64,000 nucleotides of DNA, from NCBI RefSeq assembly GCF_016026235.1, contig NZ_CP065613.1. One strand, given 5' to 3'. Made by a program: the position numbers and the translations under genes. The stretch is from Escherichia coli. Its GTDB lineage: Bacteria > Pseudomonadota > Gammaproteobacteria > Enterobacterales > Enterobacteriaceae. This document shows, piece after piece, positions 28,287-37,612 of the stretch (the stretch's first letter is position 1; the number at the start of each line of letters is the position of its first letter). Below the pieces are notes generated by a model that had not been told where the DNA came from, made no database searches, and was given only the letters and a program-made list of their open reading frames with translations.

Positions 28287-29063
28287 TCACCAGTCAAAAC
28301 TTTTCACCAGCGTCAGCTCGCCAGCATTACGCATCGGTACAATAAATGTTTCCTGTTTCTCATTGATCGATCCTTCATCGGTGATCAGCGTCAGTTGGGC
28401 GGTGGTTAATTCCGTTTCGCTGCGTCCGCCATAGTAGTTGATATACACCTGATAGCGTCCGTGAACTGGCGCTGGCATGGCGAAAATCTCGGGTCCATAC
28501 CCCGTCGTGACATCCATATCCAGTGCACCACTGTTTTTCAGCACGGTGTTACCGTACCAGGCGTGTTCGCCATCGGGCGTGACAACATGGAGATCGAGAT
28601 CGGTATTGTCCGTATCCCACGAGAGAACCAGCCGTAAACGTGCACGAATCGTTCCTGTACCCGGCGTTGAGTAAAACTGCATTTTTTGTCGGCTTTGCCC
28701 ATCTGGGCTGATGACCTGCACGCTGTTGCTGCCTTCAGTGAAAATATAAGGGCGTGCAAATGAACCATCGGATTCAATTCTCTGCGGCATACTGGCACCG
28801 TTGACCACCAGCCGGCCCTGCTGAACTTTACCCGCCGCAGCATAATTCTTTATTTTGCCGCGGATCTGCGCTGAGATATTTTGATCATCTGCCATGTTGA
28901 CGGACGACGCCGGGTAATTGATCGATTGTGAAAAACTGGCATCTTCGCCCTCTGCCGGATGCCAGCCAGAGAGCGGTGCGTCAATCTCGACTTCCTGCAC
29001 ACCTTCACTGTGAGCGACAGGCGAAAGTGCCACCAGTAACAACGGAAGAAAAATCTTTCGCAT
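28287..29063 (-). CDS. yfaP: Secreted protein YfaP (258 aa, function unknown)
   Basis: Signal peptide MRKIFLPLLLVALSPVAHS; last gene of yfa cluster. Confidence 0.8.
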   Translation of the reverse strand: MRKIFLPLLLVALSPVAHSEGVQEVEIDAPLSGWHPAEGEDASFSQSINYPASSVNMADDQNISAQIRGKIKNYAAAGKVQQGRLVVNGASMPQRIESDGSFARPYIFTEGSNSVQVISPDGQSRQKMQFYSTPGTGTIRARLRLVLSWDTDNTDLDLHVVTPDGEHAWYGNTVLKNSGALDMDVTTGYGPEIFAMPAPVHGRYQVYINYYGGRSETELTTAQLTLITDEGSINEKQETFIVPMRNAGELTLVKSFDW

Positions 29064-29067
29064 AGCA

Positions 29068-30717
29068 TTAGTCCATTAATAATTGTCGGGTCAGCGTTTC
29101 GATATAGTTCTCATCAAGCCCGGTGGGATAACCATCAAAGGCCAGGTGCAGATACTCATGGGTTAAATCCAGCCGATCCTGAAGCGTAAAGAAGTTACGA
29201 ATAAACAGCCGTTTCTGCTGCCGATCGGTATAGGGGAAACCTGAGACTAAACGACAGACCGCAAACACGTCTGGTTCGTTGTACCCCGTCTCGCCTTGTA
29301 ATATACGCCGCCACTGCGGCATTTTTTTCGCCAGCCAGGCTTTCGCTTTGGGTAATAACTGACAGGTTGAGCGTGGCGCTCCCCAGCGGCTAAGGCTGTT
29401 GTCGGGATAAGCAAACGCGAGTATCTGGTCGTAACGCTCCCCCTGCCCCGCCTGGGCCGTGGCTTGCTGCCAGGAAAGCGTCCCTTCGGTAGCGCGACTG
29501 CCGTGATAATGAACCGGATCGCCCGCATAGATGAGATCCTGCGTCCAGGCGGTCATCGTTCGCGCCCCCGTGGTAGCTGGCGAAGCCGAAACACGCTGCG
29601 TGGCGCTGCTGTCAGGGATGGTCAGGCAATCGCCTTCCCGATTGGCGTTTTGCTGTAAAAAAGTGCGTATCGCCACGGTCATGGCTTTCGCTGCCTCAGG
29701 TGGCGTACTTTTCGCCTCGCGATCCAGAACTCTGGCAACATACTCTTCACGATCGAGATGCGATTGCAATTTCAGTTTGCCCTTTTCGCTCAGTAAGGTC
29801 GTCTCACCGTGGCTGACAAACGTAATGTGGTTACCATTAGTAAACGTCACACGATAGCGCCCATTAAGTACGCCGGGTTTTACTGCCGTCGTACCCTTTT
29901 CCGCTGTGATTTTCTTCAGCGGATAGCGGGCAAATAGCCCCACCTCTACACATTGCCCACTGGCAACTTGTGTCGGCACTGGCAAAACCCGATTAAGCAC
30001 CGTCGCATAACGGGTCAGTACCGTTTTGCTGGTGCCACTGCCAGTCACCCACAGCGGTGTACCATCGGTTAACCAGCCAGCAAAACCACCCTGACGGATT
30101 TCCTGTTTATCATCGGCAAACCAGCTCCAGGTTTTCACCCGTACCCGACTACCGAGCATGGATGCGACACCGATTTTCGCCTCGTCCAGCACCACATCCA
30201 GTAAGACTTCCTGAGCTTTGTTTTGCGCAGGTAACGTCGCTAATGAATCAAGCAGCGATTTAACCGTTACCGAGGTTTCTGGCTTCAGCGTAGTAAGAGA
30301 CGCTAACCACGCAGGCGCCTGACGCTGTTGCCAGTATTGCCCCCACACATCTGCGCCAATATGCAACCGCTGCGGCGCAAAATAGAGCCCACAGGAACGT
30401 ACCAGCGCGGTATCGCGCGTTATGCTCTCCCCAGCCTGACAACAATAAACCTCTTCCGGGGAGTTTCCGCGACACTGGTAGGGCTGCTCCGGTTGATGGG
30501 TATCCTCCAGCCAGGCGTAAACATACAGTTTCCACAAACTCCCTAACGGCGTGGTGAGCGAGTCAGGTAATGCTGAGACTTTGGTCACGCCTGATGACGA
30601 CAGCTGATACAGTTGATCGTGCTGCGCACCACGCAGTGCCAGTTGTAACGGCGTCTCCTCCGCAAGCGTTGGCTGAGTAACCAACGCCAATAGCCAGACG
30701 ATTCTGCGCCAGTTCAC
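29068..30717 (-). CDS. yfaQ: Secreted protein YfaQ (549 aa, function unknown)
   Basis: Signal peptide MNWRRIVWLLALVTQPTLA; abuts yfaS stop. Confidence 0.8.
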   Translation of the reverse strand: MNWRRIVWLLALVTQPTLAEETPLQLALRGAQHDQLYQLSSSGVTKVSALPDSLTTPLGSLWKLYVYAWLEDTHQPEQPYQCRGNSPEEVYCCQAGESITRDTALVRSCGLYFAPQRLHIGADVWGQYWQQRQAPAWLASLTTLKPETSVTVKSLLDSLATLPAQNKAQEVLLDVVLDEAKIGVASMLGSRVRVKTWSWFADDKQEIRQGGFAGWLTDGTPLWVTGSGTSKTVLTRYATVLNRVLPVPTQVASGQCVEVGLFARYPLKKITAEKGTTAVKPGVLNGRYRVTFTNGNHITFVSHGETTLLSEKGKLKLQSHLDREEYVARVLDREAKSTPPEAAKAMTVAIRTFLQQNANREGDCLTIPDSSATQRVSASPATTGARTMTAWTQDLIYAGDPVHYHGSRATEGTLSWQQATAQAGQGERYDQILAFAYPDNSLSRWGAPRSTCQLLPKAKAWLAKKMPQWRRILQGETGYNEPDVFAVCRLVSGFPYTDRQQKRLFIRNFFTLQDRLDLTHEYLHLAFDGYPTGLDENYIETLTRQLLMD

Positions 30718-35337: not shown

Positions 35338-35906
35338 GTCATAAGTTGTTGCAGACTGACTGCGCGCATTCCGTTGTCAGTTTTCGTGGCGCTTCCGGTG
35401 TGGTAGATGACGTAACGCCCCATCCAGACCATTAAGTGCTGGGCATCGCCCTGATCGAAAAAAATCATATCGCCAGGCAGCGCCTGGTTTATGTCCTGGC
35501 CAATAAACTGGCTGTTGTACTGAATCAAATTAATCGCGGTCACGTAGGGGCCGGTTTTCCCGTTCCCCTGATTCCAGTTTTGCGCCAGTTGACGCTGTTC
35601 AGGTGTTAGCGTCATCTCTGGCGGCAAATACTGGCTAGATAAACCGTTACTTTTTAGCCATTTACTGTCGTGAACTTTCAGCGTCTCGTTCGCCGCAAAT
35701 CGCACCAGGCCCGCACAATCCTGCTGATACCAACGTGGACTTGGCCCCTGGCGGAGCTGTTCTTGTGCAATGCGTACAAACCAGGCGCGAAACAGCCCGG
35801 ATTGTTCGACATTCAGCATTTCGCTATGGGCAACAACACAACACAGCCAGCAAATCAGCGCCAGCAGCCCGTGCCTCATAGCGGCTGCCAGGTTATGGGT
35901 AGCCAC
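35256..35906 (-). CDS. yfaT: Secreted protein YfaT (216 aa, function unknown)
   Basis: Signal peptide ([19 protein letters not shown]); 3' end overlaps the yfaS 5' end out of frame. Confidence 0.75.
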
Positions 35907-35908
35907 TG

Positions 35909-37612
35909 CTAGGCGGCACCGGGTTCCATCTGGGCCAGCTTCATGACATAACGCGGTTGTTGAGATAAAGCGTCCAGCTTCGGCATTAATAAAGTTTGTG
36001 CGGCGTTATAAAAAACCGGTTCGAGATTCTTCGGCAGACTGGTCAACGTTTCGTTACGCAGCAGTTTCGCCACGCCTTGTGGATTGATATAGAGCGGAAC
36101 GATGCCATCAGTGGGTATTACATCCACCATTGCCGGGCGGGTTTTATTCAGTGTTTGCAGGGCGTTATTAACCAGCGTGTCATCGAGGGAGAAAAGCAGC
36201 GTTTTGTTTTGCATCGCCAGCGACACGCGGAAAAAATAATCCGACATTAATTGATCGGGTTGCGCCGCCTGCGCTTTCGGATACTGACCGTATCGGGAAC
36301 TCACTTCGCGACGCCAGATTTGCGCTTCGCCCTGCTGAGTCTGGCTTACCGGCAAAACACCTTCTGGCGCTTTGCTTTCGTGCGCACCAATATTTTGCGT
36401 AAACAGTTTCCCTGGCAATTGCGCCTGTTCGGCAGTGCCATCAAACTGACCGACAAACAGCGGGGTTTGCAATTTTGAGTCTTCATACCAGCACAGCCCC
36501 GCGGCACCGTCCAACGCCCCATTCAACTTGTCGTTTTCCTGGCTGATGTGCGAAAGCATCTCTTCGGCAATACCGTGTGAATACGGCACCGCCACACAGA
36601 AGCTGGCCCCGGCAGGCATACTGTTCCAGACCGGCGTAAAATCGAAACTGGCATCTACGCTGGCGGATTCATCATTTAACGCCACAAAACTGTGCCAGCC
36701 GTCGTTACCCATTTCGAAGCGTACGCCAGCAAAAGAAGGCATTAACCGCTGGTAGCCAAAACCCAGCAACCTGGCGCTGGCCACGATGCGCAGGCGTACT
36801 GGCGTTTTTTCGGCAGCACGCGCTTCCAGGCCAAAGCTGGCTTGCCAGCGTTTTTTGCCGCTCAACAAATCACTTGCGATCGCCGTGGCTTCGGTATCCT
36901 GCTGGTCATCTTTAAATAGCATGTCCGTGCTGGAAAACACCAGCATCTTGTCCTGATATGTCGCGAACATCAGGGCGTTATTGCCGTTATAGCGCAACTG
37001 ATAAACAGGAATAGTTTCACTATTTATCTTGATGCTACTGATTTCCGTTTTGCTTAACTGGCTGTCGCTGGTAGCGGCAAACAACAATGGCTCCAGCAGT
37101 TTGCTTAAACCACTGCGCTGGATCAGCACCATGTAATGTGAAAGATGGCCTTGTTTATCGTGCCATAGCGCCGCCTGCGCGGGCTGATCTAAGAGTGACG
37201 AAAAGAGTTTATCTTTCAGCGTGAGATCGTGTTCATAGACAATGCGGCGAATGCTGCCTTCAATGCCCAGACGATCGGCATGATTCTGATAATAGAAAAC
37301 GAAATCTTCGCTCAGAACATCGTGGAGAAACGGAATGGTAAGGAGATCTTTGGGAAGCTGGCTCAGAGAGTCGCTGTCGAGAAAGAGGTCCGGCTCATTG
37401 AGATCGATTTGCAGATTGTTGTGCACCACCAGCGGCGACAACGTTTTTTCTGGCCCACTGCCAGCATATTGCAACGCCCAGACGCCAGCGGAAAGCAGTG
37501 CTATTGCGCCAAAACCTACAAGACCATAGAACCGCCAGCCTTTCGCCTTTTTTTCACCACTCATTGCCACATTCCTTGTGTATAGCCAGCCATTTTTTAC
37601 GGGCACAGCCAA
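35909..37612 (-). CDS. yfaA: Exported/membrane-anchored protein YfaA (about 560 aa, function unknown)
   Basis: 567-aa ORF with N-terminal hydrophobic segment; first gene of cluster; exact start uncertain. Confidence 0.8.

Follow-up and report, generated by a model that had tools for sequence, protein, structure and literature searches.

The yfaA-yfaT-yfaS-yfaQ-yfaP operon of Escherichia coli as a probable Mag-type alpha-2-macroglobulin locus, with computational leads on YfaQ and on loss of the thioester

The yfa operon and its Pseudomonas counterpart

The stretch of Escherichia coli DNA considered here (hereafter the window) is 64,000 nucleotides (nt) of contig NZ_CP065613.1 in RefSeq assembly GCF_016026235.1, and carries between positions 28287 and 37612 the minus-strand genes yfaA, yfaT, yfaS, yfaQ and yfaP, of which yfaS encodes an alpha-2-macroglobulin (A2M). 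We consider it probable that E. coli has in this locus its own form of the Mag-type (‘type II’) bacterial A2M operon represented in Pseudomonas aeruginosa by magABCDEF (PA4492-PA4487), with which yfaATSQP has gene order and Pfam families in common. Gene by gene, yfaA corresponds to magB, yfaT to magC, yfaS to magD, yfaQ to magE and yfaP to magF. Both the operon and its Mag counterpart are already known: as a discovery the locus matters little, being an annotated E. coli core operon whose Pseudomonas counterpart has been studied since 2013. The fold of YfaQ, an invariant HExxH motif in the same protein and the secondary loss of the A2M thioester are computational leads not found in the literature searched, and they make the question of type II A2M function more testable. 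The five genes are as follows.

35909-37564, minus strand: yfaA, DUF2138, MagB counterpart; probable start ATG 37564; here truncated, 551 amino acids (aa)
35256-35879, minus strand: yfaT, DUF1175/MagC family, NlpC/P60-like; 207 aa from the probable start ATG 35879; signal-like N-terminus ending AHS↓E
30718-35322, minus strand: yfaS, thioester-less A2M, MagD counterpart; 1534 aa from ATG 35322; maximal open reading frame (ORF) start 35337
29068-30717, minus strand: yfaQ, Pfam DUF2300 twice plus SpoIID, MagE counterpart; 549 aa; GTG start abutting the yfaS stop
28287-29063, minus strand: yfaP, DUF2135/YfaP_C (Pfam E 4e-16), MagF counterpart; 258 aa; signal-like N-terminus ending AHS↓E

An initial annotation, made from the sequence of the window alone, had described five co-directional minus-strand ORFs between 28287 and 37612, and these were recovered at the same positions (maximal ORFs 28287-29063, 29068-30717, 30718-35337, 35256-35906 and 35909-37612), flanked by rcsC (25163-28012) and gyrA (37713-40340); the gene names that it used also match the RefSeq annotation. 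Its account of the junctions as gaps or overlaps of 0-4 bp stands for yfaS/yfaQ (0 nt, a junction length also present between the A2M and DUF2300 genes of Pseudomonas and Yersinia) and for yfaQ/yfaP (a gap of 4 nt), but fails for yfaT/yfaS, which overlap by 67 nt counted from ATG 35322, or by 82 nt on maximal-ORF coordinates. Each of the five products does begin with the hydrophobic segment noted earlier (best 15-residue Kyte-Doolittle means of 1.4-2.3), with signal-peptide cleavage assigned by eye and hydropathy only.

As a locus this is the ordinary, near-universal yfaA-yfaT-yfaS-yfaQ-yfaP operon of the E. coli core genome. A megablast search with positions 28000-38000 gave matches in 5425 of 5426 complete E. 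coli genomes, with at least 80% query coverage in 5177 of them, at 95-99% identity to most E. coli and 99.9% identity to strain FDAARGOS_943, the RefSeq record of which names yfaA, yfaT, an alpha-2-macroglobulin family protein, yfaQ and yfaP. The 64-kb window as a whole is ordinary E. coli chromosome (nrdAB, ubiG, gyrA, rcsCBD, ompC).

Assignment to the Mag type draws on domain content and order. The profile searches proposed in the initial annotation returned DUF2138, DUF1175, A2M domains, DUF2300/SpoIID and DUF2135 for the respective proteins, so that the window carries the type II operon order DUF2138, DUF1175, A2M, DUF2300, DUF2135. The order DUF2138-MagC-A2M-DUF2300+SpoIID-YfaP_C recurs in Yersinia with the same five genes as in E. 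coli, in Pseudomonas citronellolis as a six-gene arrangement (YfaP_C, DUF2138, MagC, A2M, DUF2300+SpoIID, YfaP_C), and in two metagenomic operons with A2Ms that share only ~33% identity with YfaS. Within the genus Pseudomonas, the homologues of YfaS, YfaQ and YfaA show ~45-56% identity (YfaS ~55%), values that describe genus homologues rather than the PAO1 proteins. Further features common to Mag and the yfa locus are an NRSER bait sequence and a missing thioester cysteine and, by prediction for E. coli, a transmembrane helix in the DUF2138 protein and an A2M signal peptide lacking a conserved lipobox. The two differ in that E. coli has five genes, without the leading magA copy of the YfaP-like gene; in that YfaS lacks the Glu and Gln of the thioester motif (GVIN) as well as its Cys; in the length of the yfaS/yfaT overlap (67 nt, compared with 4 nt in Mag); and in the absence of the last 11 residues from the MagB-like YfaA of this window. 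Moreover, the E. coli proteins are known from sequence and models, whereas the Mag proteins have been studied experimentally.

That experimental work provides the background against which the operon is read. MagD resides in the periplasm, where it associates with the inner membrane and forms complexes with MagA, MagB and MagF (PMC3735191). Among the partners only MagB has a transmembrane helix, and MagD depends on it for stability and location; a 100-kDa cleaved form of MagD is missing from magB and magC deletion mutants, and deletion of magE alters MagD processing (PMC5764988). In the same study TEV protease was trapped non-covalently by MagD after cleavage of an engineered TEV bait (PMC5764988). 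The mag operon was also found to protect P. aeruginosa from the peptidoglycan-targeting type VI secretion system (T6SS) effectors VgrG3 and Tae1 (PMC12663445). The initial annotation had regarded the partner functions as uncharacterised, a view overtaken by these data: MagB anchors and stabilises MagD, MagF and MagA bind it, and the structure of MagC, which is NlpC/P60-like, has been solved (7BK8). Its overall interpretation, a cell-envelope module possibly trapping proteases by a non-covalent mechanism, is supported by analogy with the published Mag work, the trapping proposal fitting because non-covalent trapping has been shown for the homologue MagD (PMC5764988).

YfaS: start, export signal, domains and bait

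The start of yfaS bears directly on whether the protein is exported. ATG 35322 has a GGAAGGA Shine-Dalgarno sequence 6 nt upstream and gives the 1534-aa protein annotated in K-12, and no other start codon within the yfaS ORF leaves a usable signal peptide. The RefSeq annotation of the nearest genome, made with the Prokaryotic Genome Annotation Pipeline (PGAP), begins instead at GTG 35232 (1504 aa), which removes the whole signal peptide; this PGAP start is probably wrong, and ATG 35322 correct. The relevant feature lies partly within the 3' end of yfaT.

35209-35322, minus strand: predicted YfaS signal peptide, 38 codons, from hydropathy and start-codon analysis

The cleavage context AxA↓(D/E)DxLPxSxY is conserved in homologues. 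As the initial annotation had reported, the maximal YfaS ORF of 1539 aa is uninterrupted, contains only two cysteines (at 30 and 1194) and has no CxEQ anywhere; one of these cysteines falls in the signal peptide, and the other is residue 1189 of the 1534-aa protein. The possibility of a lipoprotein was considered, as I-A-A-C fits a relaxed lipobox, and was set aside: the cysteine is not conserved in homologues and the AxA↓DD site is.

Membership of the A2M family, as previously proposed, is borne out by Pfam matches to MG2 (E 4.6e-19), A2M_BRD (3.7e-17), A2M (6e-12) and bMG10 (1.6e-5), with no Pfam TED match; YfaS thus has the tandem MG, bait-region and A2M/MG7 domains that define the A2M/complement C3 superfamily. 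Searching YfaS against PDB sequences with phmmer returned only weak matches to complement C5 and CD109 and no bacterial A2M, for which reason a profile comparison with the K-12 lipoprotein ECAM/YfhM was needed; a YfaS profile built from 22 homologues aligned to ECAM over the full length with an hhalign probability of 99.2 and 21% identity.

YfaS is nonetheless distinct from the lipoprotein A2M paired with pbpC, as had been stated: in K-12, pbpC-yfhM is a separate locus from the yfa genes. ECAM/YfhM and Salmonella Sa-A2M (type I) have in common with YfaS a multi-MG/BRD/TED-like/MG10 architecture and a bait region, and in both cases the A2M resides in the periplasm (by prediction for YfaS) and has as genetic partner a peptidoglycan enzyme of penicillin-binding fold (a putative one, YfaQ, in the yfa operon). 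ECAM differs in that it is a lipoprotein by its LAGC lipobox, carries an active C1187-LEQ thioester and traps covalently, and in having as its partner a single gene for the bifunctional PBP1c (PBP, penicillin-binding protein), whereas YfaS has four accessory genes; the type I features, a lipoprotein with CLEQ and a pbpC neighbour, are accordingly absent from YfaS. Two bacterial A2M forms and the yfa cluster were reportedly described by Budd et al. in 2004 (Genome Biol 5:R38).

The initial annotation had held that a canonical bait region would count against it. One was found through the A2M_BRD match given above, and it supports trapping instead.

32743-32811, minus strand: YfaS bait segment, ~residues 838-860, within A2M_BRD, preceding a conserved 13-residue motif that opens the A2M domain

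The TNRSERR of this segment is the counterpart of ANRSERG (847-853) in the bait of MagD, the sequence that Zouhir et al. swapped for a TEV site when they showed trapping (PMC5764988). The idea that the whole bait is invariant and directed at one dedicated protease had to be softened: NRSER is conserved only in relatives at least 54% identical and varies in distant operons. The invariant ERPRRE(E/D)xDTAAW is probably the conserved motif opening the A2M/MG7 domain, and not bait.

Proposed loss of the thioester within the operon family

The thioester-equivalent site of YfaS was located by its hhalign alignment opposite YPYGC1187LEQT of ECAM.

32104-32130, minus strand: thioester-equivalent site EPWGGVINT, residues 1065-1073

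Here G1069 stands in place of the thioester Cys and N1072 in place of the Gln (GVIN for CLEQ), so that the earlier description of YfaS as thioester-less holds at the aligned position itself. By alignment, TED-like motifs downstream of the site (FTWWG...) are retained. YfaS therefore lacks the CxEQ feature of the A2M/C3 superfamily, as does MagD of P. aeruginosa, an accepted member. Complement C5, likewise an accepted member, is also without CxEQ. The type II family of bacterial A2Ms has been defined by the missing thioester motif (PMC3735191, PMC5764988), and YfaS falls within that definition.

The definition itself fares less well across the operon family. Full-length homologues among those listed carried the following motifs at the site.

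GVIN: 11 full-length sequences (E. coli, Serratia, Yersinia)
GVVN: 6 sequences (E. albertii, Superficieibacter)
CVEQ: 31 sequences (many Pseudomonas)
GVEQ: at least 13 sequences (8 by pattern, with 5 of 8 unmatched sequences added on inspection by eye)
SVEQ: 1 sequence

A consensus of GGVEN, considered for the family, was discarded as an artefact of pooling CVEQ, GVEQ and GVIN sequences. The CVEQ A2M of P. citronellolis sits in a complete mag-type operon (A2M at L004 7001-11545), and the A2Ms of the two distant operons have CTEQ (L007, 4464-9011) and CIEQ (L008, 2669-7315). On these sequences, lack of a thioester does not characterise the Mag-type operon family and is a derived condition in some lineages: since CxEQ is kept in many A2Ms of the same operon type, distant ones included, the thioester would be ancestral to that type and lost secondarily. 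The Cys appears to have gone first, with Enterobacterales then losing the Glu and Gln as well. The occurrence of CVEQ, CTEQ and CIEQ within the family makes ‘thioester-less’ a poor criterion for type II, and related operons with thioester or thioester-less A2Ms offer a natural comparison for the contribution of the thioester.

The partner proteins YfaQ, YfaT and YfaP

For YfaQ an AlphaFold2 (AF2) model scored a pLDDT of 94.1 and a pTM of 0.91, and all of the top 50 Foldseek matches were to the penicillin-binding fold. The model was built from, and residue conservation read from, an alignment of 52 homologues (27-65% identity), taken from a library-wide search which yielded just 293 representatives. 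Three parts can be distinguished.

29983-30648, minus strand: penicillin-binding/class D beta-lactamase-like domain, residues ~24-245, with S60-L-W-K63 and K195-T196
29398-29952, minus strand: SpoIID-like domain (lytic transglycosylase fold), residues ~256-440, with invariant E334
29146-29160, minus strand: HEYLH (H520-E521-x-x-H524), within a C-terminal module of ~105 residues (nt 29071-29385)

In the first part, the order of secondary-structure elements fits the penicillin-binding fold, S60-x-x-K63 opening helix 59-73 and K195-T196 lying on strand 192-200, which is the placement of SxxK at a helix N-terminus and K-T on a beta-strand seen in class D beta-lactamases, BlaR1-MecR1 and PBP domains. 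Comparison of this domain with FtsI placed the motifs on S307-T-V-K310 and K494-T-G at an hhalign E-value of 0.12, which is not significant; YfaQ has no significant sequence similarity to penicillin-binding proteins, and the Gly of KTG is not conserved in it. The second penicillin-binding motif (SxN/SxV) is ambiguous, at either S98 or S108-C109. The spacings S60-S108 (48 residues) and S108-K195 (87) resemble those of class D enzymes and BlaR1.

The middle part gave a Pfam SpoIID match (E 1.3e-5), and the YfaQ family profile matched SpoIID 4RWR (E 3.9e-4), the SpoIID-like part ending near residue 440; it has both the fold and the Glu of the Y-x-x-x-V-x-x-x-E-M/A motif, at the position matching that of the SpoIID/SleC lytic transglycosylases. 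E334 lies opposite the SpoIID glutamate that we take to be catalytic. In the third part HExxH lies in helix 512-526 of the model. All 52 homologues have S60, K63, K195, T196, E334, H520, E521 and H524, and nearly all have E536. C92, C109, C452 and C488 are invariant too, which suggests disulfides and, with them, a periplasmic location, contrary to the cytoplasmic one reported for MagE. BlaR1 offers a precedent for coupling a penicillin-binding sensor domain to an HExxH metalloprotease. The combination of the three domains was not found among solved structures, and phmmer against PDB sequences returned nothing for YfaQ.

Pfam also reports two full-length DUF2300 matches in YfaQ, at residues 84-205 and 412-532 (E 6e-43 and 1e-45); the two segments do not resemble each other in sequence (their local score of 27 is that of the shuffle mean) and are structurally different parts of the model.

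YfaT matches DUF1175 (E 1.2e-57) and weakly NLPC_P60 (E 0.002), and aligns to the MagC crystal structure 7BK8 with E 1.8e-103; C55, H148 and H160, at the Cys-His-His positions of NlpC/P60, do not vary among five operons with identities as low as 39%. YfaP can be aligned with the genes at the MagA and MagF positions of other operons. YfaA matches Pfam DUF2138 (E 1.8e-280), has a predicted N-terminal transmembrane helix (a 15-residue stretch), and most probably begins at an ATG preceded by an AAGGA Shine-Dalgarno sequence.

Lesions, selection and expression

The initial annotation had called the cluster intact, which is true of yfaS and not of yfaA.

35909-35911, minus strand: private premature TAG in yfaA, codon 552 (W552*), TGG>TAG at 35910

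In a three-way comparison, yfaA of FDAARGOS_943 and K-12 continues for 11 further codons to 35876 (562 aa), overlapping the yfaT ATG (35879) by 4 nt, and the 11 C-terminal residues lost here form a motif that DUF2138 proteins conserve. A 61-mer around the stop had matches in 4838 E. coli genomes, none of them exact; for 4837 the identity was 95-99%, and for those twelve that were listed it was 98.4%, i.e. one mismatch. Either a genuine lesion of this strain or an error in sequencing could account for the change. By uncoupling the ATGA overlap of yfaA and yfaT, the stop also accounts for the GTG 35906 start of yfaT and the tight yfaA/yfaT junction in the initial annotation, both of which are by-products of it.

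A second lesion concerns K-12, in which the initial annotation had correctly taken yfaS to be disrupted: yfaS (b4500) is a pseudogene there, codon 1368 being an in-frame stop, and is free of indels. Records of E. coli further include many truncated forms of YfaS (959, 999, 1362 aa and others, with one O157:H7 entry) or YfaS-YfaQ fusions, which suggests recurrent strain-level disruption of yfaS beyond K-12, or else assembly or annotation artefacts.

Such lesions raise the question of whether the operon is a decaying or cryptic remnant with no current function in E. coli. The K-12 nonsense codon, the truncated YfaS records (959-1362 aa) and the private nonsense change in yfaA all point that way, as do the failure to find a sigma-70-like promoter upstream of yfaA and the presence of GVIN rather than GVEQ, suggestive of relaxed constraint at the thioester site. 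We judge this very improbable. The locus is in essentially all complete E. coli genomes; five-gene synteny extends across distant taxa; catalytic-type residues are intact in YfaQ and YfaT; and the ratio of nonsynonymous to synonymous substitution rates (dN/dS) against K-12 lies at 0.00-0.11 for every gene (yfaP 0.04, yfaQ 0.08, yfaS 0.11, yfaT 0.00, yfaA 0.10). The sequence cluster of intact 1504-aa YfaS has 40,950 members, against one sequence for each of the truncated clusters listed (<~1400 aa). Low dN/dS and the dominance of the intact form argue for an operon maintained by selection, with sporadic lesions in individual strains such as K-12 and that of this window.

Putative expression signals flank the cluster at both ends.

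37597-37693, minus strand: gyrA-yfaA intergenic hairpins at 37676-37693, 37636-37665 and ~37597-37629; RNA fold z-score -4.57
28188-28233, minus strand: hairpin 3' of yfaP, with a 13-bp stem followed by a U-rich stretch; RNA fold z-score -4.21

The middle intergenic hairpin (37636-37665) is terminator-like, with a 13-bp stem followed by UUUUGU, and the hairpin at 28188-28233 is the probable end of the operon. Promoter-like and terminator-like matches within the cluster did not exceed shuffled expectation. Taken together with the tight gene junctions, these signals fit, and do not prove, a single transcription unit that would be weakly expressed or activator-dependent.

In the yfaA leader (37565-37590) a short hairpin, CACA-AGGAA-UGUG, encloses the Shine-Dalgarno sequence and has GGA in its loop. 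We take it to resemble a CsrA/RsmA binding site, a weak lead given the single GGA. The magA leader of P. aeruginosa is a direct RsmA target (PMC3735191).

A possible mechanism and its alternatives

The observations above may be assembled into a working model. The five genes would be carried on one transcript and their products exported to the periplasm, where YfaA, through its N-terminal transmembrane helix, would anchor and stabilise YfaS at the inner membrane as MagB does MagD, and YfaP would bind YfaS as MagF binds MagD. A foreign periplasmic hydrolase or protease would then cut the bait loop of YfaS, on which, if MagD is a guide, the multi-MG cage would close and hold the enzyme non-covalently. 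To judge from their folds and invariant motifs, the NlpC/P60-like YfaT and YfaQ would tie the complex to the cell wall and would probably sense or remodel damaged peptidoglycan, the whole serving in the periplasm as a guard-and-repair system, with the ECAM-PBP1c pair as its analogue. For E. coli YfaS, we infer both non-covalent trapping and the partner complexes by analogy with Mag.

A number of points weigh against this reading, in the Mag system as well as in E. coli. Firstly, MagE and MagC have been reported as cytoplasmic and as forming no stable binary complexes with MagD (PMC3735191, PMC5764988). Secondly, VgrG3 is described as lysozyme/chitosanase-like and not as a protease (PMC12663445), so that simple protease trapping does not explain Mag protection. 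Thirdly, the DUF1175 family has been described as inactive and peptidoglycan-binding (PMC10318531), and the third residue of the K-T-x motif in YfaQ is not Gly. Lastly, with regard to E. coli itself, no experimental work on the Yfa proteins was found in the literature searched; no sigma-70-like promoter was found between the gyrA-yfaA hairpins and yfaA, with a terminator-like hairpin following gyrA; and YfaA in this strain lacks its conserved C-terminus, which may impair the complex here.

Some of the same points lend themselves to a different emphasis, namely that the operon encodes primarily a peptidoglycan damage-sensing and repair machine and no protease trap, in which YfaQ (with an acyl-serine transferase fold, a SpoIID-like domain for glycan strands and the HExxH module) and YfaT would be the effectors and YfaS a large regulated scaffold or sensor; the complex would be activated when YfaS is cleaved, possibly by a peptidase of the operon itself. 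The protection conferred by Mag is specific to peptidoglycan-targeting effectors, the non-protease VgrG3 among them; the loss of the 100-kDa MagD form in magB and magC deletions, and the altered MagD processing on deletion of magE, are consistent with regulated cleavage; the thioester is evidently dispensable, eroding in several lineages; and the folds and invariant catalytic-type residues of YfaQ, the invariant Cys-His-His positions of YfaT and the parallel with the ECAM-PBP1c linkage all lean in this direction. We nevertheless regard it as rather unlikely, for a protease was in fact trapped by MagD in vitro, MagC and MagE have no reported enzymatic activity, the latter two being reported cytoplasmic and the DUF1175 family inactive, and within YfaQ the usual Gly of K-T-x is missing and HExxH is known from motif and helix placement only.

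Within the reading of the locus as a Mag-type A2M operon, a more specific proposal can be put forward tentatively, as a possibility somewhat short of probable: that YfaQ/MagE is a three-part periplasmic cell-wall enzyme or sensor, and that the Mag-type operon ancestrally encoded a thioester A2M, which changed stepwise from CVEQ to GVEQ to GVIN/GVVN, so that a division into type I and type II by thioester would not hold for the family as a whole. Were this true, a fixed tie to peptidoglycan enzymes would be common to the two kinds of bacterial macroglobulin (PBP1c in type I; YfaQ and YfaT in type II), and the protection that Mag gives against peptidoglycan-targeting T6SS effectors would be explained. 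To judge from the fold of YfaQ, the macroglobulin complex may do more than trap proteases and may guard or repair the cell wall, and one of the operon's own peptidase-like proteins may cleave the macroglobulin in vivo.

Database searches and genomic neighbourhood

None of the five proteins was matched by PADLOC, and the yfa cluster is therefore not a catalogued anti-phage system. Rfam gave no match in 27500-38200 at E-values up to 0.1, and the sole NCBIfam results were an uninformative equivalog (YfaA) and a chance match (YfaP).

The surroundings of the operon vary between strains. In the window the rcsC-yfaP intergenic region (28013-28286) is without the atoSC-atoDAEB genes, whilst K-12 has atoC-atoDAEB directly upstream of yfaP (L002 1-5294); the yfa operon here adjoins the Rcs envelope-stress genes, an adjacency that is not conserved, K-12 being different. 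In FDAARGOS_943 the autotransporter gene yfaL, downstream of ubiG, is split by IS5 and annotated as a pseudogene (L001 17351-18001, L009 17981-22651).

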